A stretch of 31,837 nt of DNA from a virus (Duplodnaviria > Heunggongvirae > Uroviricota > Caudoviricetes). A program made the position numbers and the translations under genes. Location: IMG/VR virus record IMGVR_UViG_2869947659_000006. One strand, given 5' to 3'. Shown one piece after another: positions 1,915-29,217 of the stretch. Within the stretch, counting starts at the first letter, position 1. Each line of letters starts with the position of its first letter. The notes below the pieces were generated by a model. The model did not search any database. It saw nothing but the letters and a program-made list of their open reading frames with translations, and was not told the origin of the DNA.

Positions 1915-2316
1915 CGCTTCAATGGGAAATTGTTGTCGCCATTGTTCGATTAACGCGTATTTTTCAGCGACTCCTGTGCAAAATACGCTGTTGCTTTTTT
2001 TAATATATCTCGCTCAAGGCGAGCTTCATTTAACGCCTTACGCAGTTGCAGAATTTCAGATTCCAGTTCAGCCACCGTGCGGGAACCAGGAGTACCGAGC
2101 CCTTTTCTGGCGGCGGTAACCCATTGTCCTAAAGTGCCTTCAGGAAGGGATAATCGGGAAGCGCCTTCACTGATCGAAAGTTGATTTTCAAGAACCGTTC
2201 TGACAGCTTCGGCTTTGAACTCTTTAGAGTAACGTTGGTTTTTTCTGCTCATTATTAGCTCCTTCTGATGCCATTCTATTTCAGGAAGGAGTGTCCGTTA
2301 AACTCAGGCTACCTCA
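1054..2316 (-). mobile_element. IS3-family insertion sequence, most consistent with IS600 (about 1263 bp)
   Basis: Terminal inverted repeats TGAGGT...CGGACACT at 1054-1080 and, reverse-complemented, at 2290-2316. orfA/orfB are arranged with an A AAA AAG slippery motif (rc of 1994-2000). No matching 3-bp direct repeat flanks the ends. Confidence 0.75.
1950..2252 (-). CDS. IS3-family transposase OrfA (IS600-like)
   Basis: MSRKNQRYSKEFKAEAVRTV...; an AGGAG ribosome-binding site lies upstream on the minus strand; the slippery A6G is near the 3' end. Confidence 0.85.
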   Translation of the reverse strand: MSRKNQRYSKEFKAEAVRTVLENQLSISEGASRLSLPEGTLGQWVTAARKGLGTPGSRTVAELESEILQLRKALNEARLERDILKKATAYFAQESLKNTR

Positions 2317-2330
2317 TCGTTTTTGCTAAG

Positions 2331-2354
2331 GCCCGCCAGAACTGGCGGGCTTTT
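2331..2354 (+). terminator. Rho-independent terminator-like hairpin (GCCCGCCAG/CTGGCGGGC followed by TTTT)
   Basis: Inverted repeat at 2331-2339 and 2342-2350, then a T-run at 2351-2354. It has no upstream plus-strand gene, so it is probably an orphan from the deleted early region. Confidence 0.4.
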
Positions 2355-2417
2355 GCGTAGATCATGCAGGTGCATGAAAACCTCTACATAAAGCGGGCAG
2401 GCGTGGCGGGGATACGA

Positions 2418-2445
2418 TTGCGCGCTAGGTATAAGTGTGTAAAAT
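2418..2445 (+). promoter_or_regulatory. Candidate sigma-70 promoter for the ATPase-HNH operon (-35 TTGCGC, 16-bp spacer, -10 TAAAAT)
   Basis: Read by eye about 40 bp upstream of the ATG at 2488; GAGAGGG ribosome-binding site at 2475-2481. Confidence 0.25.
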
Positions 2446-2487
2446 AATTCCAAAATAAATCATCACTAATGAAGTGAGAGGGTAATA

Positions 2488-4137
2488 ATGTTAGTCAAGA
2501 AAAATAAAAATTATAGTTTATATTTTTTAATTACAAATAATCAACAGATATCTGATTCTGGTAATTATATAAAAATAGTCCCATCAAGAAGCGATTGGAA
2601 TGATTTTGGATATTTGAGTAGAGTCGAAATATCTATTTTTAATAAAAAAGAGTGTAAGGATATAATTTCACTGAATGGTTATATTGGTTTTTTGAATTCA
2701 GAGGAGGAACGAAATGGAAAAGCAGAACTGATAAGGCGAGTGAAGAAAAAGGAAGAATCTAATTTAAAGGATGAGGGGTTTAATGATTATTTTGTCATGC
2801 TTCAGGATATGAATAATTATCGAAGACTAGTAAGATTTTTTGGGGTGAATGAATCCAAATATATATTAAATTTCATTAATGATGTTGTTTCTAAGAAAAG
2901 TGACGCTAGTGCAGAGAATTTGAGGAAAAAAGCAATCTCTTCTGATATCTTTAATAAATCTTTCATTAGAGAGTCTGAGTCGTATTTTACTTTCAAAAAT
3001 GCAGGAACAGTTCTTTCCGGTATTCAATATGAGGAGTTGGGTAATTTATCACAGCACATCAAGATTAGCTATTCGAATAAAGTTAATGAAGAAGATGTAT
3101 CTTATGTTTTTAATTTTGATCACGAGCATGATTTACCAAAAAGAATTTCCATAATTATAGGCGAGAATGGTGTAGGAAAAAGCCAAACGCTTAGAGAAAT
3201 CGCATTGGCTGCGATTAAAGGAAAGGATAATTTGGTGGCTGTAGTTGATTCTAACGGTGTGAGCATTGAAGAACGAATTCAAATTAGTAGGCTCATTGCT
3301 TTTTCTCCAACAAATGAAAGTAAGTGTTCATTTCCAACCGATAAAAGAATAAAATCATTGATATGGTACAAAAGATTGACTTTAAATCGTGAATCAAAAT
3401 CCAAATTAAACTTGAATGATTTAATAGTGCAACTAGCGAGGAGTAACGACGCTATCGGCTATAATCAAAGGTGGAATATATTTGTTGATGCACTGAGTGT
3501 TCTAAATAGTAACAACGATTTAGTAATCAAATGTGGCGGTGAAAATTCACCATTTGTTAAATTAAATGAGCTTAATTCTCGAGGCGAAGAATCTAGACTA
3601 TCATTATATTCTGAAATTATTCTCTCTGGCGAGCCTTTGAGGCTTATTGAAAATAAATGTTACCCTTTGAGTAGTGGGGAAATATCGTTTATTAAGTTTT
3701 GTGTACAAGTCTGTTTGTATATTGAGAATGGGACTCTTCTATTAATAGATGAGCCAGAAACACATCTCCATCCTTCATTTATTAATAAATTTATGGCATT
3801 GCTTGATAATTTATTAGAAAAGACAGGCTCTTCAGCTATCATAGCAACGCATTCGGTTTATCTTGTTCGGGAGGTTTTTAAGGAGCAAGTGACAATACTC
3901 AGAAGACGAGATGATGGGGTAATTGTTAGCGAAAAACCGAGATTGAGTACTTTTGGGGCGAATATAGGAAATATCTCATATTTTGTTTTCGGTGAGAGTG
4001 AACCAACTCAAATTTTAAATAAAGTAAAAAACAATATAATTGCAAAGAATATGTCTTGGGATGATGTTGAATCTAAATATAGCGAGGACTTATCACTTAA
4101 TGTATTAACTGCGTTGAGAAATGAAATGGGCAATTGA
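2488..4137 (+). CDS. ABC-type/AAA_21-like ATPase (549 aa) with an ~210-aa N-terminal domain of unknown function; candidate defence ATPase (PtuA-like)
   Basis: Walker A GENGVGKS, signature-like LSSGE, Walker B LLLIDEPETHLHP, H-loop IIATHS. Strongly AT-rich (about 18% G+C in a hand-counted 60-nt stretch, versus about 58% in a phage structural gene). Confidence 0.8.
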   Translation: MLVKKNKNYSLYFLITNNQQISDSGNYIKIVPSRSDWNDFGYLSRVEISIFNKKECKDIISLNGYIGFLNSEEERNGKAELIRRVKKKEESNLKDEGFNDYFVMLQDMNNYRRLVRFFGVNESKYILNFINDVVSKKSDASAENLRKKAISSDIFNKSFIRESESYFTFKNAGTVLSGIQYEELGNLSQHIKISYSNKVNEEDVSYVFNFDHEHDLPKRISIIIGENGVGKSQTLREIALAAIKGKDNLVAVVDSNGVSIEERIQISRLIAFSPTNESKCSFPTDKRIKSLIWYKRLTLNRESKSKLNLNDLIVQLARSNDAIGYNQRWNIFVDALSVLNSNNDLVIKCGGENSPFVKLNELNSRGEESRLSLYSEIILSGEPLRLIENKCYPLSSGEISFIKFCVQVCLYIENGTLLLIDEPETHLHPSFINKFMALLDNLLEKTGSSAIIATHSVYLVREVFKEQVTILRRRDDGVIVSEKPRLSTFGANIGNISYFVFGESEPTQILNKVKNNIIAKNMSWDDVESKYSEDLSLNVLTALRNEMGN

Positions 4138-5002
4138 AATGAATAAATTAAAAAGACCTGTTTTTAAAGATTATTCTGCATTTAAAAAACTATCTGCAAA
4201 TAAGAGATTAAAACATCATTCTGTTCTGAATGGACAGGATACATTTATACTTAATGCATATAGATCGTACATAAAGAATAAAGGGTATCTTAATGTCAAT
4301 TCTTGTGGCGTATTGAGTAACAATATTGCTGAAGCTTTGAGATATTATTATAACAATCCCGCAAAGTGTTTATCTATAATTGATGATATAAGAGCAGCTA
4401 ATTCTAACTCTCTATGTCCAATGTGTGGTTCAATGCATAGCGGGACTTTGGATCATGTTTTACCCAAGGAAAACTATCCAGAATTTTCTTTATTCACTAA
4501 GAATTTGGTTCCTGCTTGCAAATGTAATACTTTCAAAAGTACTACTATAGCTAATTCTGCAGGCCATCGGATGCTGCATCCATATTTTGATAATATATTA
4601 AAACAAAGATTAATATGTGCTAATTTTTCTAAATTAGGGCGAACACCTACAATTGATGTAAAAATCATAATTGACCCAATGTCACCAGAATATAACAATG
4701 TTAAGTATCATCTTGATAATGTTGTTATCAAGAATAATATTAAGGGGTATTTGTCTGAACAATGGGAGTCGTTTTACTTATATCCTGAGCTTGTTATTAG
4801 AGGACTGAATAAGAGTCTTTCTACTTATAGCGATGTATATGAGTTGTTGACTCGCGAGTTGTTGCTGTTGGATGAAAAACATAAAGGTAAAAATAATTGG
4901 AATTCGGTTTTTGTAGCTGGGTTAATTCGACCTGATGTGATTAGGTGGATACTCTGTGAATTACATTTAGGTAACAGAAGTCCAGACGGTCGTCTCATAT
5001 GA
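4121..5002 (+). CDS. HNH endonuclease-family protein (293 aa); candidate nuclease partner (PtuB-like). Start could instead be the ATG at 4139.
   Basis: CPMCG...GTLDHVLPKENYP...NLVPACKCN is a CxxC...DH...N...CxCN HNH core. It overlaps the upstream ATPase stop by 17 nt and is AT-rich. Confidence 0.75.
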   Translation: MKWAIEMNKLKRPVFKDYSAFKKLSANKRLKHHSVLNGQDTFILNAYRSYIKNKGYLNVNSCGVLSNNIAEALRYYYNNPAKCLSIIDDIRAANSNSLCPMCGSMHSGTLDHVLPKENYPEFSLFTKNLVPACKCNTFKSTTIANSAGHRMLHPYFDNILKQRLICANFSKLGRTPTIDVKIIIDPMSPEYNNVKYHLDNVVIKNNIKGYLSEQWESFYLYPELVIRGLNKSLSTYSDVYELLTRELLLLDEKHKGKNNWNSVFVAGLIRPDVIRWILCELHLGNRSPDGRLI

Positions 5003-5012
5003 TTTTTTGCAT

Positions 5013-5038
5013 CTTCAGCGTGTATCTGCACGCTGAAG
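5013..5038. other. Perfect 10-bp stem / 6-nt loop hairpin between the HNH gene and the portal gene
   Basis: CTTCAGCGTG-TATCTG-CACGCTGAAG. There is a T-run before it but not after, on either strand, so it is not a canonical terminator. Confidence 0.4.
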
Positions 5039-5108
5039 AAATTCATAAAAACTGCTGGCTATTAATAAATTTTTTAGCTGTGTTAAAGAACCTCATTTAG
5101 TGATTACG

Positions 5109-6143
5109 TTAAGTAGCTAGTTTATAACTATCAAATTTAACAATGTTCTCACTTACCAATTTATTTATTTCCATCATTCTTTTTTGTAACGGTATTAACT
5201 CGTTACGTACAAACACCAGGCTCGCCTTCTCCACATCCCCAAACCCCCCGACATTATTAGGCATAATCCCCATCATTTGCGGTGGCACACGATGCGCCGC
5301 CATCATGTCATCCCGGCTCACGTTCTTGATGTTCAGAAACTCATCCTTCGCCGCGACTTCTGACAACGGGATGATCTGAAGCCCGTCCTTTTTGCCGTTA
5401 GGCGAGTACATAAACAGATTGCGGAAGTTACCTGGTCCTTTGGCGCTTTTCATCGCATTGCGGAGGTTGTTCACATCCTCCTGGTTTTGCGCGGCATCGG
5501 TCATGTACATGATGAAGCCTGCATGACTGCCGTTAATGTAATACTATCGGCGGAACAGCGTGGCGGACTCGTTGAGCAGAGCTGACGGAATGGCAGAAAG
5601 GTAACCTGGCAGGCCGTAGATCTCTTGGTTGATGTCCGGTTCCATCAGATGAAAGATGCTTCCTTTCGTGAACTGATACGGCTGCGTGGTCATGCCGTAT
5701 TGCACAAACCAGTAGGTATCCAGGTCTAATCCGCGTCGGGTGTATTTTGCCAGAGCAGGCTCAAGAGCGATGACCTCTCCGAACCGGTTTGTGCGTTTCT
5801 CCAGGTAAGCGTTACCAAATACCAGATAATCCTGCACAAAACGTGAAAAAGCCTGCTGGCTGAGCAGCGGGTGAGGGATGTAGGTACTGATCAGAATGTT
5901 GCATTTCACCGCAATTGGTGAACTGTGATGCACGGCGGCGCGGAAGGTGCGCGCCAGTCCGTCAAAACTCACTGGCGGCTCATACCAGCGATCTGTCTGT
6001 ACGCATTCCACATAGTCCAGTAGTTCACGGCGGTCCAGAACCGGAACGGGATCGCCGAAGCTGAATGCTTCGGCTGAAGTCTGGTTTTTATGCTGGGTCT
6101 GTTTCGTCGCCGCAGCGCGGTTCTTCTTACTCTTTCCCATCAA
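5109..6143 (-). pseudogene. Q: Portal protein (P2 gpQ homolog) interrupted by an in-frame TAG at 5544-5546
   Basis: ORFs 5544..6143 and 5109..5510 are in the same frame (435 nt apart). The read-through sequence is ...ATLFRR*YYINGSHAGFIMYMTDAAQ... Confidence 0.85.
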
Positions 6144-7906
6144 AAAATCTCCACAATATTGCTGGTATTGGCGGACTCGCCCTGCAGCGGTTCGTTAAAC
6201 AGTGCGTGCATTGTTGCCCAAGCCAGATCGGCATGGCTGGCTTCTTCGCTGCGGCTGGCTTCATAGGTCGGGCGGTTGCCGCTGGCGGTGGTGGCGCGAC
6301 GGATTGCCATGAATGACTGCGCAATGTCGGTGTGCCCGGCGTCAAACTCAAGACGGCGGTGGCTGATAATGTCGTAGGCCTTGAGTACCAGGGCGTTTTT
6401 AACGTTGGGGTTGTAGACAAACTCCCGGACGGCAGGAAAAAACGCTTTCACGTTCTCGTAAACCCCGTGACCAACGCCGGTTGAGTCGATGCCGATATAG
6501 GTCACGTTGTACTGTTCAGTCAGTTTTTTGATGGCGTCAGCCTGGGCGCGAAAGTCCATTCCGCGCCACTGGTGACGCTCAAGAATGCGGAACTTACCGC
6601 CTGGCACGGCTGGCGGTGCCACCGCCACGCATCCGGCGCTGTCGCCGTTCTGCGTACCTTTTGCCGGGTCATAACCGATCCACACTTCGCGCCAGCCAAA
6701 CGGGCGCAGGGCCAGTGCATGAAAGTCGGTCCAGACTTCCCAGCTGTCCACCATGCACGCCTGCAATTCGCTGAGCGGGAACACGGACGCGAGATCGTCC
6801 ACGAACTCGCACATCAGCAGGTTCTGGTATTCGTCAGGGCTGTACTCCATGCGCAACTGGTCAAGGTCGAACAGGTTACAGGCGCCGCGCACCGCATCTT
6901 CCACGGTGACTATCTGGCGGTATTGCCCGTCTGCGCACAGCAGGCCGGGGGCCAGATTGCTGTGGGACAGGTCGATGTCCACCTTGTCAGCTTTGTTGCG
7001 CCCACGGTTGAACAGCGCACCGGACCAGAACGGATAAGCACTGTGGGTCAGACTGGATGGTGTGGAAAAATAGGTCTGCCGCCATTTCTTGTGAATAGCC
7101 ATACCGGAAGCCACTTTGCGTAGCTCCTGAAATTTCGGTATCCAGAAATATTCATCCAGATACAGGTTACCGTGATAACTCTGGGCAGTGCGGGCATTGG
7201 TGCCGAGGAAATACAGTGTGGCCCCGTTGGGAAGCACCATCGGATCGCCTTTCAGCTCCACCTCCACTTCTTTGGCAAAGTCGATGATGTACTGTTTGAA
7301 GACGTGGGCCTGTGCCTTACTGGCAGAAAGGAAAATCTGGTTACGTCCGGTAAGCAGGGCGTCAATCAGGGCTTCACGGGCAAAATAGAAGGTCGCGCCG
7401 ATCTGGCGTGACTTCAGCAGGTTGCGGATGCGGTTGGTTTTTCCGGCTTCCCACCAGTGGCGCTGGTAGTTGAACATGGAGGAATGGAAAATTTTTTCCA
7501 GCTTCTCAATCTGGTCATCGGTGAAAACATTCTTTTCAGGCTGACGGCGTGGGCCTTTGTTGCGGTTGGCGACGTTAGGGTTTAAGTCGGCTTCGTTGCC
7601 GCCATTGTTAAACTTGCCGATCCGCGCGTGGCGCTCAGACTGGCGCGCCAGCAGGTCAATCTCTTTGAAATCTTTCCCTTCTTTGTGCTCCTTCATGATG
7701 AGCTGGCAGTAGCGTGCGGCGGTGGTGAGCTGCATCTGATCCAGAGGCCCATAGTCACCCCACTTGTCGTGTTTTTTCCAGCTGTGAACGGTTGCAACTT
7801 TCTCGCCCAGCATTTCAGCAATGCGGGCTACGCGGTATCCCTGAAAGTACAGCAGCATGGCCTGCCGACGGGGATCGAGATCTGCGGGTGTCAGTGTGGT
7901 GTTCAT
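6140..7906 (-). CDS. P: Terminase large (ATPase) subunit, P2 gpP homolog
   Basis: 588 aa; lies upstream of the portal gene on the same strand, as in P2; ATG at 7904-7906. Confidence 0.9.
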   Translation of the reverse strand: MNTTLTPADLDPRRQAMLLYFQGYRVARIAEMLGEKVATVHSWKKHDKWGDYGPLDQMQLTTAARYCQLIMKEHKEGKDFKEIDLLARQSERHARIGKFNNGGNEADLNPNVANRNKGPRRQPEKNVFTDDQIEKLEKIFHSSMFNYQRHWWEAGKTNRIRNLLKSRQIGATFYFAREALIDALLTGRNQIFLSASKAQAHVFKQYIIDFAKEVEVELKGDPMVLPNGATLYFLGTNARTAQSYHGNLYLDEYFWIPKFQELRKVASGMAIHKKWRQTYFSTPSSLTHSAYPFWSGALFNRGRNKADKVDIDLSHSNLAPGLLCADGQYRQIVTVEDAVRGACNLFDLDQLRMEYSPDEYQNLLMCEFVDDLASVFPLSELQACMVDSWEVWTDFHALALRPFGWREVWIGYDPAKGTQNGDSAGCVAVAPPAVPGGKFRILERHQWRGMDFRAQADAIKKLTEQYNVTYIGIDSTGVGHGVYENVKAFFPAVREFVYNPNVKNALVLKAYDIISHRRLEFDAGHTDIAQSFMAIRRATTASGNRPTYEASRSEEASHADLAWATMHALFNEPLQGESANTSNIVEIF

Positions 7907-7952
7907 GGCACAAACCTACAGCCTTGAATGAAGGCTTTCCCCGCCTGCGGTT

Positions 7953-7970
7953 TGTGTGGTTGTCGGTACA
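7953..7970. promoter_or_regulatory. Ogr-type late promoter activator site (TGT-N12-ACA) in the divergent P/O control region
   Basis: TGTgtggttgtcggtACA. P2 late promoters carry this dyad near -55. Confidence 0.45.
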
Positions 7971-8048
7971 AATACCGCGCATTGTTTCACTGCCCCTATC
8001 ACCGCAACCATAAGGCTCCAGTAAGTTTTTTCTAACGGAGCACGGCTC

Positions 8049-8882
8049 ATGACAGTGAAAGCAAAGCGTTTTCGCATAGGGGTGGAAGGTGCCACCACCG
8101 ACGGACGCGAAATCCAGCGTGAATGGCTGGAACAGATGGCAGCCAGCTATAACCCGGCGGTGTATACCGCGCTGATTAACCTTGAGCACATCAAGTCTTA
8201 TCTGCCGGACAGCACCTTTAACCGCTACGGCAAGGTGACGGCGCTGTTTGCTGAAGAAATCACGGAAGGTCCGCTGGCAGGCAAGATGGCGCTGTATGCT
8301 GACGTTGAGCCAACGGAGTCCCTGGTGGAACTGGTGAAAAAAGGCCAGAAATTATTCACCTTTATGGAAGTCAGCCCGAAGTTCGCTGATACGGGCAAAG
8401 CCTACCTGGTCGGCCTAGCTGCCACTGATGACCCTGCCAGTCTGGGCACTGAAATGCTGACATTCAGCGCCAGTGCAGCCCATAACCCGCTGGCAAACCG
8501 CAAGCAGAATCCCGCCAATCTCTTTACCGCCGCAGAGGAAACGGTGATCGAACTGGAAGAAGTCCAGGACGACAAACCGTCCCTGTTTGCCCGCGTCACG
8601 GCGCTGTTTACCAAAAAAGAGCAGTCCGATGACGCCCGGTTCTCTGATGTGCATAAGGCCGTGGAGCTGGTCGCCACTGAGCAGCAGAACCTGAGCGCAC
8701 GCACCGAAAAATCCCTGTCTGAGCAGGAAGAACGCCTGTCTGAGCTGGAGACTGCCCTGCAGGCACAGCAAACCGCCTTTAACGAACTGGTGGACAAGCT
8801 GAGTCATGAAGACAGCCGCCAGGACTACCGCCAGCGTGCAACAGGCGGTAACGCCCCCGCTGACACTCTGACCAATTGCTGA
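8049..8882 (+). CDS. O: Capsid scaffold protein, P2 gpO homolog
   Basis: 277 aa, MTVKAKRFRIGVEGATTDGREI...; GGAG ribosome-binding site. Confidence 0.9.
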   Translation: MTVKAKRFRIGVEGATTDGREIQREWLEQMAASYNPAVYTALINLEHIKSYLPDSTFNRYGKVTALFAEEITEGPLAGKMALYADVEPTESLVELVKKGQKLFTFMEVSPKFADTGKAYLVGLAATDDPASLGTEMLTFSASAAHNPLANRKQNPANLFTAAEETVIELEEVQDDKPSLFARVTALFTKKEQSDDARFSDVHKAVELVATEQQNLSARTEKSLSEQEERLSELETALQAQQTAFNELVDKLSHEDSRQDYRQRATGGNAPADTLTNC

Positions 8883-8898
8883 TGGAGCACAAAACCTG

Positions 8899-9957
8899 AT
8901 GAAGAAGAATACCCGCTTTGCTTTTAACGCTTACCTGCAGCAACTGGCGCGTCTGAACGGTGTGGCAGTTGAAGAACTGTCCAGCAAGTTCACCGTAGAG
9001 CCGTCCGTGCAGCAGACGCTGGAAGACCAGATCCAGCAGTCCGCCGCTTTCCTGACTCTGATTAACGTCACGCCAGTGACTGAGCAGTCCGGTCAGCTGC
9101 TGGGGTTGGGAGTTGGCAGCACCATTGCCGGAACCACTGATACCACTGCGAAAGAGCGTGAACCTGTCGATCCGACGCTGATGGTCGATGTGGAATATAA
9201 ATGCGAGCAGACCAACTTTGACACGGTGCTGACCTACGCGAAGCTGGACCTGTGGGCGAAGTTTCAGGATTTTCAGGTGCGTATCCGTGACGCCATCGTG
9301 AAACGTCAGGCACTGGACCGCATCATGATCGGCTTTAATGGCGTGAAGCGTGCGAAAACCTCCAACCGTAGCGAAAACCCGCTGCTGCAGGATGTGAATA
9401 AAGGCTGGCTGCAGAAAATCCGTGAGGATGCACCGGATCACGTCATGGGCAGCACCACCACGGGCGGTGAAACCACACCGGGCGCAGTGAAAGTCGGGAA
9501 AGGTGGCGAATATGCCAACCTGGACGCCGTGGTGATGGATGCCGTCAATGAGCTTATCGACGTGGTCTACCAGGACGATGACGATCTGGTGGTGATTTGC
9601 GGTCGTGAACTGCTGTCTGACAAGTATTTCCCGCTGGTCAACAAAGAGCAGGAAAACAGTGAAAAACTGGCTGCCGATATGATCATCAGTCAGAAACGCA
9701 TGGGTGGCCTGCAGGCCGTGCGTGCGCCGTTCTTCCCGCCGAATGCGCTGCTGATCACCCGTCTGGATAACCTGTCCATCTACTGGCAGGAAGACACCCG
9801 CCGCCGTTCAGTTATCGACAACCCGAAACGTGACCGGATTGAAAACTTTGAATCCGTTAACGAAGCCTATGTGGTTGAGGACTACCGCTGCGCCGCACTG
9901 GTGGAAAACATCCAGATTAGTGATTTCAGCGCCGCCGCAGCCGAAACCGGAGCGTAA
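8899..9957 (+). CDS. N: Major capsid protein, P2 gpN homolog
   Basis: 352 aa; matches P2 gpN along its length (TRFAFNAYL..., FTVEPSVQQTL, GKGGEYANLDAVVMDA). Confidence 0.9.
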   Translation: MKKNTRFAFNAYLQQLARLNGVAVEELSSKFTVEPSVQQTLEDQIQQSAAFLTLINVTPVTEQSGQLLGLGVGSTIAGTTDTTAKEREPVDPTLMVDVEYKCEQTNFDTVLTYAKLDLWAKFQDFQVRIRDAIVKRQALDRIMIGFNGVKRAKTSNRSENPLLQDVNKGWLQKIREDAPDHVMGSTTTGGETTPGAVKVGKGGEYANLDAVVMDAVNELIDVVYQDDDDLVVICGRELLSDKYFPLVNKEQENSEKLAADMIISQKRMGGLQAVRAPFFPPNALLITRLDNLSIYWQEDTRRRSVIDNPKRDRIENFESVNEAYVVEDYRCAALVENIQISDFSAAAAETGA

Positions 9958-13931: not shown

Positions 13932-14207
13932 GTGGCTTCCATTTCCATCAGATGTCCTTCCTGCTCCGCTACTGAAGGCGTGGTGCGTAACGGCAAAAGC
14001 ACTGCCGGACATCAGCGCTATCTCTGCTCTCATTGCCGTAAAACATGGCAACTACAGTTCACTTACACCGCCTCTCAGCCCGGTACGCACCAGAAAATCA
14101 TTGATATGGCCATGAATGGCGTCGGATGTCGCGCCAGTGCACGCATTATGGGCGTTGGCCTCAACACGGTTTTACGTCACTTAAAAAACTCAGGCCGCAG
14201 TCGGTAA
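13932..14207 (+). CDS. insA: IS1 InsA
   Basis: 91 aa, [23 protein letters not shown]... Confidence 0.9.
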
Positions 14208-14629
14208 CCTCGCGCATACAACCGGGCAGTGATGTGATTGTCTGCGCTGAAATGGACGAACAGTGGGGCTACGTCGGTGCTAAATCACGTCAGCGCTGGC
14301 TGTTTTACGCGTATGACAGGATACGGAGGACGGTTGTGGCGCACGTCTTCGGTGAACGCACTCTGGCCACACTGGAGCGTCTTCTGAGCCTGCTGTCGGC
14401 CTTTGAGGTCGTGGTATGGATGACGGATGGCTGGCCGCTGTATGAATCACGCCTGAAGGGAAAGCTGCACGTTATCAGCAAGCGTTACACTCAGCGCATT
14501 GAGCGACATAATCTGAATCTGAGACAACATCTGGCAAGGCTGGGACGGAAGTCACTGTCGTTCTCAAAATCGGTGGAGCTGCATGACAAGGTCATCGGGC
14601 ATTATCTGAACATAAAACACTATCAGTAA
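14126..14629 (+). CDS. insB: IS1 InsB (made as an InsAB' fusion by -1 frameshift at the A6C motif near 14186)
   Basis: 167-aa ORF overlapping insA; TTAAAAAACTC slippery motif. Confidence 0.85.
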
Positions 14630-14639
14630 GTTGGAGTCA

Positions 14640-15653
14640 TTACCCAATTGAGTTAGATATAGATAGGAATGTGTCCCCTATTTCTATAGATAGTTGTTTA
14701 ATTAAATTCATGAAAATTAAATTCTCTTCGTTGCAGTCATTTTTCAGTAGACAGCACGTTGATTGAGTAAGACTAAGGGCTGTAGCATGTGCAGGGTCAA
14801 CTAATCCGAAATTACTTGGACCTATGTTGATGACGTTCTTCAGGTGATGGGGTAGTGACAAGCTATTAGTGATTGTTTTTATATTTACATGGATGTTTTG
14901 GCATGCCCATTTAAAATATGGGCGCATGTGATCTAATTTAACTTCTTTTTCAATTGATTTAAAGCTAGCTTTGTGTTTCTTATCAGTTAAAAATGGTGTG
15001 GCCCAACCATATTGCGAATCAAAACTTCTGCCATATGTTTTAATGGCTTTATCGAACAAGTCTGTTAATTCTCTGGCCTCTTCATTACTGGGCCCTTTCT
15101 CTTGAAGCCTGCTTTCATACTTTTTATGTGACATCATTAGATAATAGCTATCATAAATTTCATGTGCTAAAAATATTTCTGAGCATTTAGGACCATGCTT
15201 GTTGATGAAATGAAGTGTTACATTTGTTTCATGCAGTGCTCTCCATCTTGCATGGGCTGCGTCAGGAAATCCATTTTTTAATAGACATAAAATCTCGTTA
15301 GAAATTGCACATGCCTTTGCGTGTAATCTAATTAGTAATTGCAAATGGTTGTTTGTGTCGGTGTCTTTATCTTGTTGTAAGCTTGTACTATATTTAGAAC
15401 CTTGATTAATACATAACTCTAACAACAACTCTAATAATCCAAAACCATCTCTCCAAATATTAATATGTCTTTTTATGAAATTTTGATGTTCTTGTTCATT
15501 TTGGGCCAGTAATTCTGCTTTTTTTTCTTTAAATTCCGACATGTATTCATTTGCTTTGAAGTCTATGAACTCCCAGTATAGCTTTTCAAAATTTTCTCTG
15601 GTTGCATCGGGAAGACTGTTTTTATTTGAGCTTAACCATTCTTTAAAATCCAT
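14640..15653 (-). CDS. AT-rich cargo protein of unknown function (337 aa) at the P2 S/V (orf30) position; 3' end altered by IS1
   Basis: About 38% G+C in a hand-counted 60-nt stretch. Convergent with S. A possible HEPN-like R-x4-H motif (RWRALH) is a weak hint only. Confidence 0.7.
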   Translation of the reverse strand: MDFKEWLSSNKNSLPDATRENFEKLYWEFIDFKANEYMSEFKEKKAELLAQNEQEHQNFIKRHINIWRDGFGLLELLLELCINQGSKYSTSLQQDKDTDTNNHLQLLIRLHAKACAISNEILCLLKNGFPDAAHARWRALHETNVTLHFINKHGPKCSEIFLAHEIYDSYYLMMSHKKYESRLQEKGPSNEEARELTDLFDKAIKTYGRSFDSQYGWATPFLTDKKHKASFKSIEKEVKLDHMRPYFKWACQNIHVNIKTITNSLSLPHHLKNVINIGPSNFGLVDPAHATALSLTQSTCCLLKNDCNEENLIFMNLIKQLSIEIGDTFLSISNSIG

Positions 15654-18159: not shown

Positions 18160-19697
18160 GCACAAAATTTTATACCCTGCTGACGGATATTGGCGCGGCG
18201 AAACTTGCCAGCGCCGCCGCGCTCGGTGTGCCTTTAAAAATTACCCATATGGCGGTGGGCGATGGTGGCGGAACATTGCCGACGCCGGACGCAAAGCAGA
18301 GTGCACTGGTAAATGAGAAACGCCGGGCTGCGCTGAATATGCTCTATATCGACCCGCAGAACAGCAGCCTGATTATTGCTGAACAGGTGATCCCTGAAAA
18401 CGAGGGCGGTTGGTGGATACGTGAAGTGGGCCTGTTTGATGAGTCCGGGGCATTGATTGCCGTGGGAAACTGCCCGGAAAGCTATAAGCCGCAACTGGCT
18501 GAAGGCAGCGGGCGTACCTAGACCGTGCGCATGGTGCTGATTACCAGCAGCACGGACAATATCACCCTGAAAATCGACCCTGCCGTAGTGCTGGCAACCC
18601 GCAAGTATGTGGATGATAAGGTACTGGAGCTGAAGGTGTACGTGGATGATCAGATGGCAAAACATCTTGCAGCACCGGACCCGCATTCACAGTATGCACC
18701 CAAAGAAAGTCCTACGTTTACCGGGACACCCAAAGCGCCAACGCCAGCGGCGGGGAATAACACCACGCAGGTTGCGACCACCGCGTTTGTTCAGGCGGCA
18801 CTGACGGCTCTTATTAATGGTGCGCCAGCCACGCTGGACACGCTGAAAGAAATTGCCGCAGCCATAAACAATGACCCGAAATTCAGTACCACCATTAACA
18901 ATGCGCTGGCACTGAAAGCGCCGCTGTCGAGTCCGGCACTCACCGGAACGCCAACAGCACCTACTGCGGCACAGTCGGTCAACAATACACAGATTGCCAC
19001 CACGGCATTTGTGAAATCGGCGATTGCGGCAATGGTGGGTTCTGCACCTGCGGCACTGGATACACTGAACGAACTGGCGGCGGCACTGGGGAATGATCCG
19101 AACTTTGCCACGACAATGCTTAATGCGCTGTCAGGTAAACAACCGCTGGACAATACGCTTACCAATTTGAGTGGAAAGGATGTAGCTGGTCTTCTCACAT
19201 ACCTTGGTTTGGGAGAAGGCTCTGCATTACCTGTTGGTGTGCCTGTTCCGTGGCCTTCAGCCACTCCGCCGACAGGCTGGCTGAAATGCAATGGTGCGGC
19301 TTTTTCTGCTGAAGAATACCCGGAACTGGCAAAGGCTTACCCGACAAATAAATTGCCTGATTTACGCGGTGAGTTTATTCGTGGCTGGGATGACGGACGT
19401 GGAGTGGATAACGGAAGGGGATTATTAACGCTTCAGGACGGTGCGATTGTCAGTCATAACCACTATTGGGGAATCTGGACTTCACGAACTAACGACCAGA
19501 CTCTGGAAAGTTTTACAGGCACCACGATTTTAAAACAAATCACGCCCCTGTCTCCGGCCATTGACTTCGATAATTACCCAATTCCCAACCCGGCTATTAC
19601 AGAGGGTGGTGTTGTTGCGGCAACGACTAAACCTGCAGGTGCGAATGAAACACGCCCACGAAATGTCGCTTTTAACTATATTGTGAGGGCTGCATAA
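18156..19697 (+). pseudogene. H: Tail fibre protein (P2 gpH homolog) with an in-frame TAG at 18519-18521; C-terminal tail-collar-type receptor-binding part lies inside the invertible segment
   Basis: ORFs 18156..18521 and 18525..19697 are in the same frame. P2 H reads AEGSGRWQTCRM; this window reads AEGSGRT*TVRM. Confidence 0.8.
19192..19217. repeat. Left crossover site of the invertible tail-fibre segment (gix/hix-like 26-bp site)
   Basis: TTCTCACATACC-TT-GGTTTGGGAGAA; 14 bp identical to the reverse complement of the site at 21046-21071. Confidence 0.55.
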
Positions 19698-20299
19698 TGA
19701 ATAACGCAGAATTAAACAGTGAATTAATTGCCACTATGGCAGGAGAAATTACTGTTTATAACTTTGATGTCATGAGTCGGGAATATATTTCAGCTTCAAC
19801 TGAATATCTTGCTATTGGTGTCGGCATTCCGGCATATTCCTGTTTAGATGCCCCAGGCGCATACAAAGCTGGTTATGCAATCTGCCGATCTGCAGATTTT
19901 AACTCATGGGAATATGTGCCAGACCATCGCGGTGAAATCGTCTTTAGCACCGAAACAGGAGAATCAAAAGAAATCACAGTTCCGGGTGATTACCCTGATA
20001 ATACAACCACTATCGCCCCGTTAACGCCATACGATAAATGGGATGGTGAGAAATGGGTGGCGGATACCGAAGCACAGCATAGCGCCGCAGTAGATGCAGC
20101 AGAAGCACAGCGCCAGTCACTGATTGATGCTGCAATGGCTTCCATTAGTCTGATTCAGCTGAAATTACAGGCCGGACGGAAGTTGACGCAGGCAGAAACC
20201 ACCCGACTTAACGCCGTGTTGGATTACATTGACGCGGTGGCGGCAACAGATACCAGCACCGCGCCGGATGTCATCTGGCCTGAACTGCCGGAGGCGTAG
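19697..20299 (+). CDS. G: Tail fibre assembly chaperone (P2 gpG / Tfa-like)
   Basis: 200 aa; lies downstream of H. Confidence 0.85.
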   Translation: MNNAELNSELIATMAGEITVYNFDVMSREYISASTEYLAIGVGIPAYSCLDAPGAYKAGYAICRSADFNSWEYVPDHRGEIVFSTETGESKEITVPGDYPDNTTTIAPLTPYDKWDGEKWVADTEAQHSAAVDAAEAQRQSLIDAAMASISLIQLKLQAGRKLTQAETTRLNAVLDYIDAVAATDTSTAPDVIWPELPEA

Positions 20300-20708
20300 G
20301 CCATTCAATATCTGGAGCACTGGAGGTATCAATCAGTTCCAGTGCGTCCAGATAATCCAGCCACAAATTATATTGCGCCAGTTCCTCACCTTTCAGACGA
20401 CCAATAGCGGCTTTACCGGGCCATTGTTTACTGTTCATGTATTCGTTGGCCTGATTAAGCAATAATTGCCTTTCTGATTCTGCCTGTTGAATAAGTTCTT
20501 CATATGATGGTGGAGGTATTAGTGCCCATGTGGGTAATCCATTTTTTCCTGCAACACGAATTTTGTCATCTGGGGGCGTATTGATTGCAAATTCATTATA
20601 AACATCATCACTGACAGCCAGAGCATCATCTGGCCATGAATTTGCATTAATGTAATCATCCTTAAGCGCAGGATTCACAAAAATGTTTAAAGATGGACTA
20701 TAAAACAT
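20271..20708 (-). CDS. Alternative tail fibre assembly chaperone (Tfa') of the inverted orientation
   Basis: 145 aa; C-terminus ...DIEWPTPPA parallels the gpG C-terminus ...DVIWPELPEA; convergent 3' overlap with G. Confidence 0.8.
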   Translation of the reverse strand: MFYSPSLNIFVNPALKDDYINANSWPDDALAVSDDVYNEFAINTPPDDKIRVAGKNGLPTWALIPPPSYEELIQQAESERQLLLNQANEYMNSKQWPGKAAIGRLKGEELAQYNLWLDYLDALELIDTSSAPDIEWPTPPAVQAR

Positions 20709-20709
20709 A

Positions 20710-21045
20710 TTAAACCCCTATAGCGATATAACGACCTAATACAGCATTTGCAGCAGTCGCTATGCTTGAAAAACCGCGGAACTGATTTGATGTAATTGCA
20801 GAAGCCGACAGGATTCCTGCGCCTGAAGGTGTATGCCCCACATGACTAACTATCATCCCATAACATGCTGACGGAAAGGCAAAAGGAAAATCATTAAGAT
20901 ATCCTGCATCTTCACCACCAGACCCACCAAATCTCGCCTGCCCCCACTGAATAATCAGTGTTCTCCGGGAACCTGAAATAATTAACTGAATCGTTACATA
21001 CCCATTCAGGCCAATGACACCCGATGCAGTGCCAGCCAGAGATAA
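20710..21045 (-). CDS. Alternative tail fibre C-terminal segment (Sv'-like), with no start codon of its own; expressed only after inversion fuses it to the constant part of H
   Basis: The ORF runs into the crossover site and encodes ...FLNVGLGELS, matching the H junction LTYLGLGEG. Confidence 0.65.
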   Translation of the reverse strand, partial: LSLAGTASGVIGLNGYVTIQLIISGSRRTLIIQWGQARFGGSGGEDAGYLNDFPFAFPSACYGMIVSHVGHTPSGAGILSASAITSNQFRGFSSIATAANAVLGRYIAIGV

Positions 21046-21071
21046 TTCTCCCAAACCAACGTTTAAGAAAA
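21046..21071. repeat. Right crossover site of the invertible segment
   Basis: TTCTCCCAAACC-AA-CGTTTAAGAAAA; resembles gix (TTCCTGTAAACCGAGGTTTTGGATAA). Confidence 0.55.
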
Positions 21072-21126
21072 TGCAGAGATAATGGCTAACTGGCATCATC
21101 CCCGGTTTTTATTCAGGGGATTGATC

Positions 21127-21693
21127 ATGCTTATTGGCTATGTACGCGTGTCAACAAATGACCAGAACACCGATTTGCAACGTAATGCACTGAACTGCGC
21201 GGGATGTGAGCGGATTTTTGAGGATAAAATCAGTGGCACTAAGCCCGACAGACCGGGGCTTAAAAAACTGCTCAGGACACTATCGGCAGGAGACACGCTG
21301 GTTGTCTGGAAGCTGGACAGACTGGGACGCAGTATGCGGCATCTTGTTACGCTGATAGAAGAGTTGCGCCAGCGTGGTGTGAATTTCCGAAGCCTGACTG
21401 ACAGTATTGATACCAGTACCCCAATGGGCCGTTTCTTTTTTCACGTCATGGGGGCTCTGGCTGAAATGGAACGTGAACTGATAGTTGAACGTACCAGAGC
21501 AGGGCTGGCTGCAGCTCGTGCCAAAGGCAGAGTAGGTGGACGCCGTCCTAAGTTGACCACCGAACAGTGGGCACAGATTGGACGTTTACTCGAGGCCGGA
21601 GAATCAAGACAGCGTATTGCACTGATTTTTGATGTGGGCGTTTCTACCATTTATAGAAAATTTCCGGCGAATGAGAGCAATGAATCGCCCTGA
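21127..21693 (+). CDS. Serine-recombinase DNA invertase (Gin/Hin/Cin/Pin family)
   Basis: MLIGYVRVSTNDQNTDLQ... with the catalytic Ser motif; C-terminal helix-turn-helix. Confidence 0.9.
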   Translation: MLIGYVRVSTNDQNTDLQRNALNCAGCERIFEDKISGTKPDRPGLKKLLRTLSAGDTLVVWKLDRLGRSMRHLVTLIEELRQRGVNFRSLTDSIDTSTPMGRFFFHVMGALAEMERELIVERTRAGLAAARAKGRVGGRRPKLTTEQWAQIGRLLEAGESRQRIALIFDVGVSTIYRKFPANESNESP

Positions 21694-28982: not shown

Positions 28983-29067
28983 CGCTGCCGCCATTTTGTC
29001 GCCATCGTTAAAAAACAGTGCTTCTAACATCATGATTTTAAAAGGCATAAATTTCAGACAACAAAAA

Positions 29068-29104
29068 ACCCATCAACCTTGAACCGAAATGGCGGGGTTG
29101 ATGG
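29068..29104 (-). terminator. Rho-independent terminator-like hairpin downstream of ybjL
   Basis: Stem CCCATCAACC/GGTTGATGGG; on the minus strand it is followed by a T-run (plus-strand A-run at 29062-29067). Confidence 0.45.
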
Positions 29105-29217
29105 GCTCCACAAAATGGGGACATCAAAGAAAAGCAGTGGCACTAATTAAGACTGATGCCCTGCGGAAAAGTTCTGCGGTTGTGCAAAAAAATTTCATTT
29201 TCAGGGCAACTTCAGTT

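Follow-up and report, generated by a model that had tools for sequence, protein, structure and literature searches.

The gene pair considered here is related to the Septu systems, in which the ATPase PtuA is partnered by the HNH nuclease PtuB. The pair occupies positions 2488-5002 of a 31,837-nucleotide (nt) stretch of viral DNA (IMG/VR record IMGVR_UViG_2869947659_000006, hereafter the window) and lies in a P2-like prophage. In validated Septu both the ATPase and the HNH motifs are needed (PMC13096335; PMC12935923). The PtuA oligomer holds PtuB, with the C-terminal extension of PtuA contacting PtuB's C-terminal domain (PMC12819146). Phage proteins, the level or hydrolysis of ATP and breakup of the complex have been linked to PtuAB activation, and the PtuAB targets are DNA and/or tRNA-Tyr (PMC12819146; PMC13096335; PMC12935923). 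What is sensed reportedly shifts with accessory elements attached to the PtuA core (PMC12819146).

The second point of reference is the site itself. In P2, the cos-adjacent gpA-gpQ hotspot is the site of tin and old; relatives of P2 have many validated defence systems there (PMC9122126, Rousset 2022; PMC9519451). Both tin and old act from the prophage (PMC9122126). The list of Vassallo 2022 contains no HNH-containing system (PMC9519451).

The cassette in the window very probably belongs to one family with the Ea59 and Ea31 proteins of phage lambda and with the PADLOC candidate system PDC-M01. With moderate confidence, it is read here as a Septu-family two-gene ATPase-gated nuclease of the Ea59/Ea31-like clade, carried as exchangeable cargo at the P2 hotspot. 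An antiphage function is considered rather likely by analogy with PtuAB.

The two genes and their conserved motifs

Gene 1 (2488-4137, + strand) is an open reading frame (ORF) of 549 amino acids (aa) identified as an ABC-type ATPase (Ea59-like / PDC-M01A) by PADLOC, Pfam, PHROG 8066 and an AlphaFold2 (AF2) model. Gene 2 (4139-5002, +) encodes a 287-aa HNH nuclease (Ea31-like / PDC-M01B) with a PtuB-like fold. The original prediction, made from the DNA letters, of a two-gene module of an ATPase and an HNH nuclease was borne out: both ORFs are present and their catalytic motifs are invariant across the family. Contrary to the earlier statement, the two genes do not overlap. The longest ORF for gene 2 (4121-5002, +; 293 aa) begins at an alternative upstream ATG at 4121, and the reported 17-nt overlap is an artefact that arose because this longest ORF was taken. 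The conserved start is the ATG at 4139, on which the family consensus N-terminus (MNKL...) and the RefSeq call concur. The genes abut, and at the junction (TGA-A-ATG) the ATG of the nuclease lies one base past the stop codon of the ATPase.

The ATPase motifs are invariant in a 57-member alignment. They comprise Walker A (G225-x-N-G-x-G-K231-S232; 3160-3183, +), the signature (S395-S-G-E398 within LSSGE; 3667-3681, +), Walker B (D421-E422; 3736-3753, +) and the H-loop (T454-H455-S456; 3844-3855, +). All four are part of a compact ABC ATPase core (aa 186-505; 3043-4002, +) recognised from the invariant columns and from Pfam, in which AAA_21 (3e-16) and AAA_15 (1.3e-8) match within residues 221-460. 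In the nuclease, C93xxC96, D105-H106, N122, C127xC129-N130 and H147 are invariant (57-member alignment, 287-aa numbering), and the HNH core located by motif alignment is at 4415-4579 (+). Pfam gave no match in the nuclease. Searches of Pfam, NCBIfam and PADLOC detected no TOPRIM, DUF4435 or other effector domain in either protein.

The GC content is 0.28-0.35 over 2501-5000, compared to 0.52-0.61 in the structural genes to the right. The composition is therefore foreign to the prophage, as first noted, and forms an island of about 30% GC at the cargo site. A chance origin of the two frames can be safely dismissed, since two long ORFs are found in DNA of 30% GC and both have hundreds of full-length homologues.

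Similarity to Septu and to other defence systems

Motif and domain searches confirmed the architecture initially described, that is, a Septu-like pair lacking TOPRIM in which the ATPase has a long N-terminal extension. Walker A, the signature, Walker B and the H-loop are all intact, as expected of a Septu ATPase, and its partner, an HNH (beta-beta-alpha-Me) nuclease, has the PtuB fold. When the full ATPase model was searched with Foldseek, a comparison dominated by the ATPase core, PtuA chains (Ec83, Ec78, E. coli Septu) were the first hits, with E-values of about 2e-8, TM (template modelling) scores of about 0.3 and 10-14% identity.

A pair with the same extended layout has been placed in Septu before. 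Rousset 2022 gives the label 'Septu (Doron et al., 2018)' to system 17 of the P4 hotspot, which has the domains 'AAA_15/AAA_21' and 'HNH_4' and occurs 80 times. The N-terminal domain recurs in the ATPase of this system, where it includes a DDWNDFSF motif and the P-loop follows near residue 210; the alignment covers residues 31-292 of the window ATPase (E 3e-9). The nuclease of system 17 aligns to the window nuclease at E 2e-12. Like the window pair, this system is cargo of a cos-adjacent hotspot, but its carriers are P4 satellites and not P2 phages, and the identity is about 23-33%. Because P4 system 17 shares the N-terminal domain, the N-extended architecture is already filed under Septu. The tables of Rousset 2022 give no sign that P4 system 17 was tested.

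Two other groups of systems were compared. Unlike the retron type I-A effectors (Ec78/Eco7, Ec83 PtuAB), the window pair has no adjacent reverse transcriptase or retron RNA: none of the flanking ORFs resembles a reverse transcriptase and Rfam finds only RybB in the window. The NCBIfam model TIGR02646 reached E 0.075 on the window pair. P2 Old, GajA of Gabija and AriAB of PARIS belong to the same AAA_15/AAA_21 superfamily, and old shares the P2 hotspot. However, these are TOPRIM systems, whereas the nuclease in the window is an HNH enzyme on a separate protein, and matches to AriA, ATPase-Toprim and AbiLi models cover the ATPase part only.

A catalogued family that includes lambda Ea59 and Ea31

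The pair had been thought to represent a divergent or undescribed variant. It is in fact already catalogued in PDC-M01, PHROGs, the Rousset tables and RefSeq, and it has relatives in lambda. The ATPase matches PADLOC PDC-M01A (PDLC04242) at E 3.2e-55, with residues 27-539 of 549 aligned to model positions 31-551 of 566, so that the N-terminal domain falls within the match. Five PDC-M01A models are its top PADLOC matches. The nuclease matches PDC-M01B (PDLC04270) at E 1.2e-33 (residues 8-270 against positions 3-263 of 280), and all 25 among the matches listed for it are PDC-M01B. The two proteins thus match PDC-M01A and PDC-M01B near end to end and are encoded side by side in the order A then B; in Pfam, only AAA_21 and AAA_15 were found and an HNH match was lacking. 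An end-to-end match that covers the N-terminal domain exists to this catalogued family but not to a characterised system.

The PDC-M01 scores are modest for the lengths of the two proteins, which suggests that the sub-branch in the window is not among the seed groups of the models. The PADLOC PtuA model PDLC00282 spans residues 32-535 of the ATPase, while the other PtuA models match its C-terminal half only. PHROGs 8066 (E 9e-211 with the ATPase) and 18937 match near-identically (E about 1e-210), and the function of both is unknown. The exact protein pair is listed, uncurated, in Table S5A of Rousset 2022, a table of P2-hotspot loci.

A TBLASTN search against phage genomes gave matches to two lambda genes: ea59, covering 96% of the ATPase, and ea31, at the nuclease core. 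In lambda (NC_001416, 3486-5950) ea59 is followed by ea31 with a 4-nt overlap, and the proteins have 525 and 296 aa. Pairwise BLASTP gave 2e-19 for Ea59 (window residues 21-549 against 6-518) and 2e-15 for Ea31. In hhalign comparisons the ATPase and Ea59 were paired with 99.5% probability, including the N-terminal WND(F/Y) region, and the nuclease and Ea31 with 98% probability over columns 63-271, past the HNH core and into the C-terminal domain. Both proteins are therefore homologous to the lambda pair, and the order of ATPase and HNH gene is the same.

Lambda Ea59 and Ea31 themselves score 4e-201 and 6e-113 on PDC-M01A and PDC-M01B. As the lambda pair scores on the same models, the window pair, lambda Ea59/Ea31 and PDC-M01 form one broad family. 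Ea59 also scores 5e-184 on PDLC00282, so this PtuA-named model evidently represents Ea59-like proteins. The lambda proteins are about 24% (Ea59) and 37% (Ea31) identical to the window pair. Ea59 has a shorter N-terminal domain, with its P-loop near residue 190 (K231 in the window ATPase). The literature search found no paper linking ea59 to Septu.

The lambda pair sits in the b region beside att, and the window pair beside the portal gene. The position of ea59-ea31 just past att/int is the starting point of a different explanation, in which the module serves the phage lytic cycle or competition between phages, for example as a nuclease acting on nucleic acid of the host or of a rival phage after induction or infection. 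In lambda, ea59-ea31 belong to the early lytic transcripts made from pL and are not expressed from the repressed prophage, which would suit such a role, as would the cos-like sequence that the cassette adjoins. In addition, ea59-ea31 are dispensable for lambda growth (PMC12318184). The explanation is nevertheless unlikely. Many homologues are found outside phages, in an integrative and conjugative element (ICE) and a chromosomal defence island, settings in which a lytic role makes no sense. At the hotspot itself, tin and old are active from the prophage, and the cassette has its own terminator-insulated upstream region.

Position at the P2 hotspot

The Septu-type antiphage reading agrees with where the cassette and its homologues are found. 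E. coli UPEC-245U has a P2-like prophage that matches the window from 2316 to 9000 with 99.7% identity. In UPEC-245U and two other intact relatives the order is replication endonuclease, small hypothetical protein, DinI-like protein, ATPase, HNH nuclease, portal, terminase. This order places the cassette between the replication side and the portal gene Q, i.e. in the cos-proximal gpA-gpQ hotspot, in agreement with the tin/old position that was first assigned to it. The cassette was also said to lie between an integrase remnant and the portal gene. This is true of the window, but in intact relatives the left neighbour is the DinI-like gene; the integrase remnant took its place because insertion sequence (IS) elements replaced the early region of the phage. 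Homology to the intact prophages ends exactly at 2315/2316, where an IS3-family element stops. The cassette is present in 3 of 5,426 complete E. coli genomes, and the flanking stretch 2316-2437 in about 1,190.

The replaced region (1-2315) holds an IS911-like orfA (1-339, -) and fragments of a tyrosine integrase (284-1069, -; Int_N 1e-30), with the Pfam Int_N match found in the integrase-remnant ORF at 614-1069. The IS3-family element to the left of the cassette consists of orfB (1009-1914) and orfA (1950-2252), both on the minus strand. A protein named from Shigella dysenteriae (P0121) is a 100% identical match, which, along with the density of IS elements, points to Shigella as a likely source.

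Homologues in other mobile elements and in defence islands

For the ATPase the searches recovered 724 homologues, and for the nuclease 340. These are full-length proteins (about 545-555 and 287-288 aa, respectively) with 38-55% identity from Gamma-, Beta- and Alphaproteobacteria, and many of the pairs are on shared contigs. Four distant loci were compared, and the two genes abut in each. In Pseudoxanthomonas the pair lies in an ICE with type IV secretion genes, an integrase and a RES-domain protein. The Salmonella pair is in an integrative element with an integrase, HipA, ArdC and TraI, and the Microvirga pair in an island with GmrSD, a GIY-YIG nuclease and an MmeI/Eco57I-type enzyme. The fourth locus is that of the E. 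coli P2-like prophages. The upstream neighbours showed no similarity across the four loci, and no third gene is conserved. Three relatives (P0306, P0334 and P0338, among members of 700-812 aa) have an extra AbiJ_NTD3 or DUF4062 domain ahead of the N-terminal domain; these fusions look like modular additions.

Homologues beside integrases at the edges of integrative elements would also be expected of an addiction module, in which the HNH protein is a toxin and the ATPase its neutraliser, and which mainly serves to keep the mobile element stable. Pfam describes AAA_21 as a putative AbiEii toxin of a type IV toxin-antitoxin system, and the pair is still intact in a prophage that has otherwise decayed. 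The intactness cannot be read as selection, however, because the divergence from the E. coli relative is only 17 substitutions in 6.7 kb. In PARIS, a related system, either gene can be deleted without toxicity. An addiction role, which appears improbable, would in any case leave room for antiphage activity.

The Microvirga island, with its GmrSD and MmeI-type restriction genes, raises the question of whether the complex attacks foreign DNA in the manner of restriction, for instance at particular modifications or structures, and does so without killing or arresting the host. The ATPase has a partial match (1.3e-20, residues 392-506) to NCBIfam TIGR04435, 'restriction system-associated AAA family ATPase'. 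This match reaches 74 bits against a cutoff of 300 and covers generic ABC C-terminal motifs only, a methylase or specificity component is not conserved beside the pair, and its closest structural relatives (PtuB) come from systems described as abortive or growth-arresting. A restriction-like function is thus judged about as improbable as addiction. None of the rival readings, including the silent passenger considered below, accounts for the PtuB fold in combination with the defence-island and hotspot settings better than the Septu-like reading does.

Evidence against a Septu assignment

A number of results weigh against the Septu assignment. The Foldseek E-values for PtuA are only about 100-fold better than those for ordinary ABC transporters. 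The NCBIfam PtuA model scored 41 bits against a cutoff of 500 and covered residues 418-537 only, and the PtuA structure 8ee4 in the PDB was matched at E 1.7e-3 over residues 415-548. With the ATPase family profile, Ec83 PtuA was found at E 6e-4, no better than UvrA. Homology to validated PtuA does not extend over the full length of the ATPase, being confined to its C-terminal half. In PDB sequence searches with the ATPase (phmmer and the family profile), only the generic ABC signature/Walker B region was matched. The HNH family profile did not recover PtuB among PDB sequences.

The layout of the proteins also differs from that of characterised Septu. The window ATPase has neither the N-terminal P-loop of PtuA nor its long insertion between Walker A and Walker B. 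In PtuA of Septu EcB88, K43 and the Walker B residue D316 are 273 residues apart (PMC13096335), compared to 190 residues between K231 and D421 in the window ATPase. The insert of the window ATPase contains no helix beyond about 19 residues and so lacks the long helical insertion of PtuA. The characterised PtuB proteins have H75/N91 or H53, and the window nuclease H106/N122. The window ATPase has an extra N-terminal domain of about 185 aa, and the nuclease an extra helical N-terminal region of about 85 aa. Identity of the window pair to characterised stand-alone Septu (E. coli ATCC 25922, PDB 8EE4/8EE7/8EEA; EcB88; P. rettgeri) is 10-15%. Since the layout differs, the PtuA6:PtuB2 assembly may not apply to this pair. 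PDC-M01 itself is an unpublished PADLOC candidate. In favour of the assignment, its calls in the B. cereus group often match those published as Septu (PMC11811056). The literature on PDC-M01, on ea59 with Septu and on validated PDC systems yielded no experimental test of the clade.

Providencia also has homologues of the pair, and the validated Septu of Providencia rettgeri was considered as support. It was dropped because its PtuA is canonical, with an N-terminal P-loop at about residue 33.

The remaining points against concern the locus. A consensus promoter scan upstream of the gene 1 ATG gave no passing candidate, and the host prophage is defective and decaying. The portal gene Q (5109-6143, -) has a nonsense codon at 5546 (A, compared to T in the E. 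coli relative) which changes Lys to a stop near codon 200. As Q is split by this premature stop, the prophage cannot package DNA. Together with the IS elements that replace everything to the left of 2316, the portal stop and the promoter scan would fit a silent passenger, with intact ORFs that are unexpressed or functionless in this copy as IS elements dismantle the prophage. This is very improbable. The 172 nt upstream of the cassette (2316-2487), which include the terminator-like hairpin and the ribosome-binding site, differ from the intact E. coli relative solely at position 2383, and both reading frames are unbroken, with one and zero residues changed relative to the E. coli copy.

The N-terminal domain and C-terminal tail of the ATPase

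The N-terminal domain of the ATPase sets the clade apart from every solved PtuA; Pfam gives no match to it, and among PDB sequences none was detected. The extension was originally put at about 210 residues, without any recognisable motif ahead of the P-loop. Pfam was likewise empty there, with no match ahead of residue 213 for either the whole ATPase or the N-terminal 185 aa alone. The extra domain is real but shorter than stated. In the AF2 model (predicted local distance difference test, pLDDT, 79.6) the strands of the ABC fold start at about residue 188, and the domain therefore spans about residues 1-185 (2488-3042, +), as delimited by AF2 secondary structure and family searches. It consists of a five-stranded beta region followed by a helical bundle, and N38-D39-F40, within a WNDF-type motif, is invariant.

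A search of 1.84 billion representatives with the N-terminal domain only gave 152 clusters at 50% identity. Nearly all are proteins of 530-580 aa with the domain at the N-terminus, hence the domain is specific to the family and not a promiscuous module. Between distant members it is 38% identical and almost gap-free, compared to 52% identity for the ATPase core. It aligns with lambda Ea59 and with the P4 'Septu' ATPase. The domain is acidic in the family (median pI 5.3) and basic in this AT-rich copy, so that its charge is of little use beyond a weak argument against a nucleic-acid-binding role.

At the other end, the ATPase has a C-terminal tail of three helices (aa 506-549; 4003-4134, +), which the AF2 model places at 508-519, 524-531 and 537-548. 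The weak phmmer alignment to PtuA 8ee4 extends to residue 548. The tail is a candidate docking site for the HNH partner, because in PtuA the C-terminal extension contacts PtuB's C-terminal domain (PMC12819146).

A possible mechanism and its wider meaning

The following model borrows complex formation, ATP gating, trigger, substrate and antiphage phenotype from PtuAB, and it is graded lower than the antiphage function as such. The ABC ATPase would form ATP-sandwich dimers or higher oligomers, and its C-terminal helices would hold the PtuB-like HNH nuclease inactive in the complex. A cue from the infecting phage, sensed by the N-terminal domain or consisting of a change in ATP, might alter or dissolve the assembly. 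The released nuclease would then cut nucleic acid, either DNA or, as in characterised Septu, tRNA, and phage replication would halt, probably at a cost to the host cell. The N-terminal domain could be the sensor, or it could be an alternative oligomerisation element standing in for the absent helical insert.

A bolder proposal, which is possible but remains doubtful, is that the Ea59/Ea31-like clade is a mechanistically distinct Septu subtype. In that case the N-terminal domain of about 185 aa would serve as phage sensor or assembly switch, in place of a coiled-coil insert or a retron, and lambda ea59-ea31 would be a working member. If true, two lambda genes that have long lacked an assigned role would gain one, and a new sensor domain would be defined.

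On the Septu-type reading the cassette is plausible and fairly ordinary, a member of a catalogued Septu-related candidate family of which the extra N-terminal domain alone is unexplained. If active, it would be one more entry in the repertoire of the P2 hotspot. It also points to a widespread Septu-related clade of Proteobacteria with hundreds of full-length homologues that has apparently never been tested. Because lambda Ea59 and Ea31 belong to it, the clade could be studied in the best-understood phage system. The family assignment further provides a better label for the pairs annotated as 'AAA family ATPase / HNH endonuclease' at the P2 locus.

Flanking elements and other features of the window

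Upstream of the cassette, a GC-rich hairpin followed by UUUU (2325-2356, +) is terminator-like, with a folding energy of -23.4 kcal/mol (z -4.9; 0 of 200 shuffles were as good). A simple terminator scan did not include it in its list. The hairpin would close the upstream phage transcription unit and insulate the cassette from the IS element that ends at 2315. The sequence GGCGTGGCGGGGATACGAT (2400-2418) is cos-like, with a probable resemblance to the cohesive end of phages 186 and P2. If it is cos, the cassette has cos on one side and the portal gene on the other and occupies the extreme left of the packaged genome. The native upstream region that follows (2419-2487, +) contains a Shine-Dalgarno-like GAGAGGG (2476-2482) 5 nt ahead of the ATG, and the promoter of the cassette is presumed to be within it. 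Downstream, a perfect 12-bp hairpin (5012-5039; -19.6 kcal/mol, z -5.5) separates the convergent HNH and portal genes. It has a U-tract on neither strand, and may therefore be a transcript-end or stabiliser element.

A second AT-rich patch is found at 13932-15653 (GC 0.34-0.38). There, an IS1 (insA/insB-like ORFs, 13932-14629, +) adjoins a gene for a 337-aa DUF5677 protein (14640-15653, -; Pfam 2e-28), which sits just ahead of a gpV-like baseplate gene. The DUF5677 gene has no PADLOC match and possibly represents further cargo of a variable P2 locus. The RybB small RNA (29060-29138, -; 105 bits) is the only Rfam match in the window. RybB marks host chromosomal sequence, so on the right the prophage ends short of about 29 kb. 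Within the region 19697-21693, opposed ORFs resembling tail-fibre assembly genes (19697-20299, +; 20271-20708, -; 20710-21099, -) adjoin a serine DNA-invertase-like gene (21082-21693, +), an arrangement that suggests an invertible tail-fibre switch of host range.

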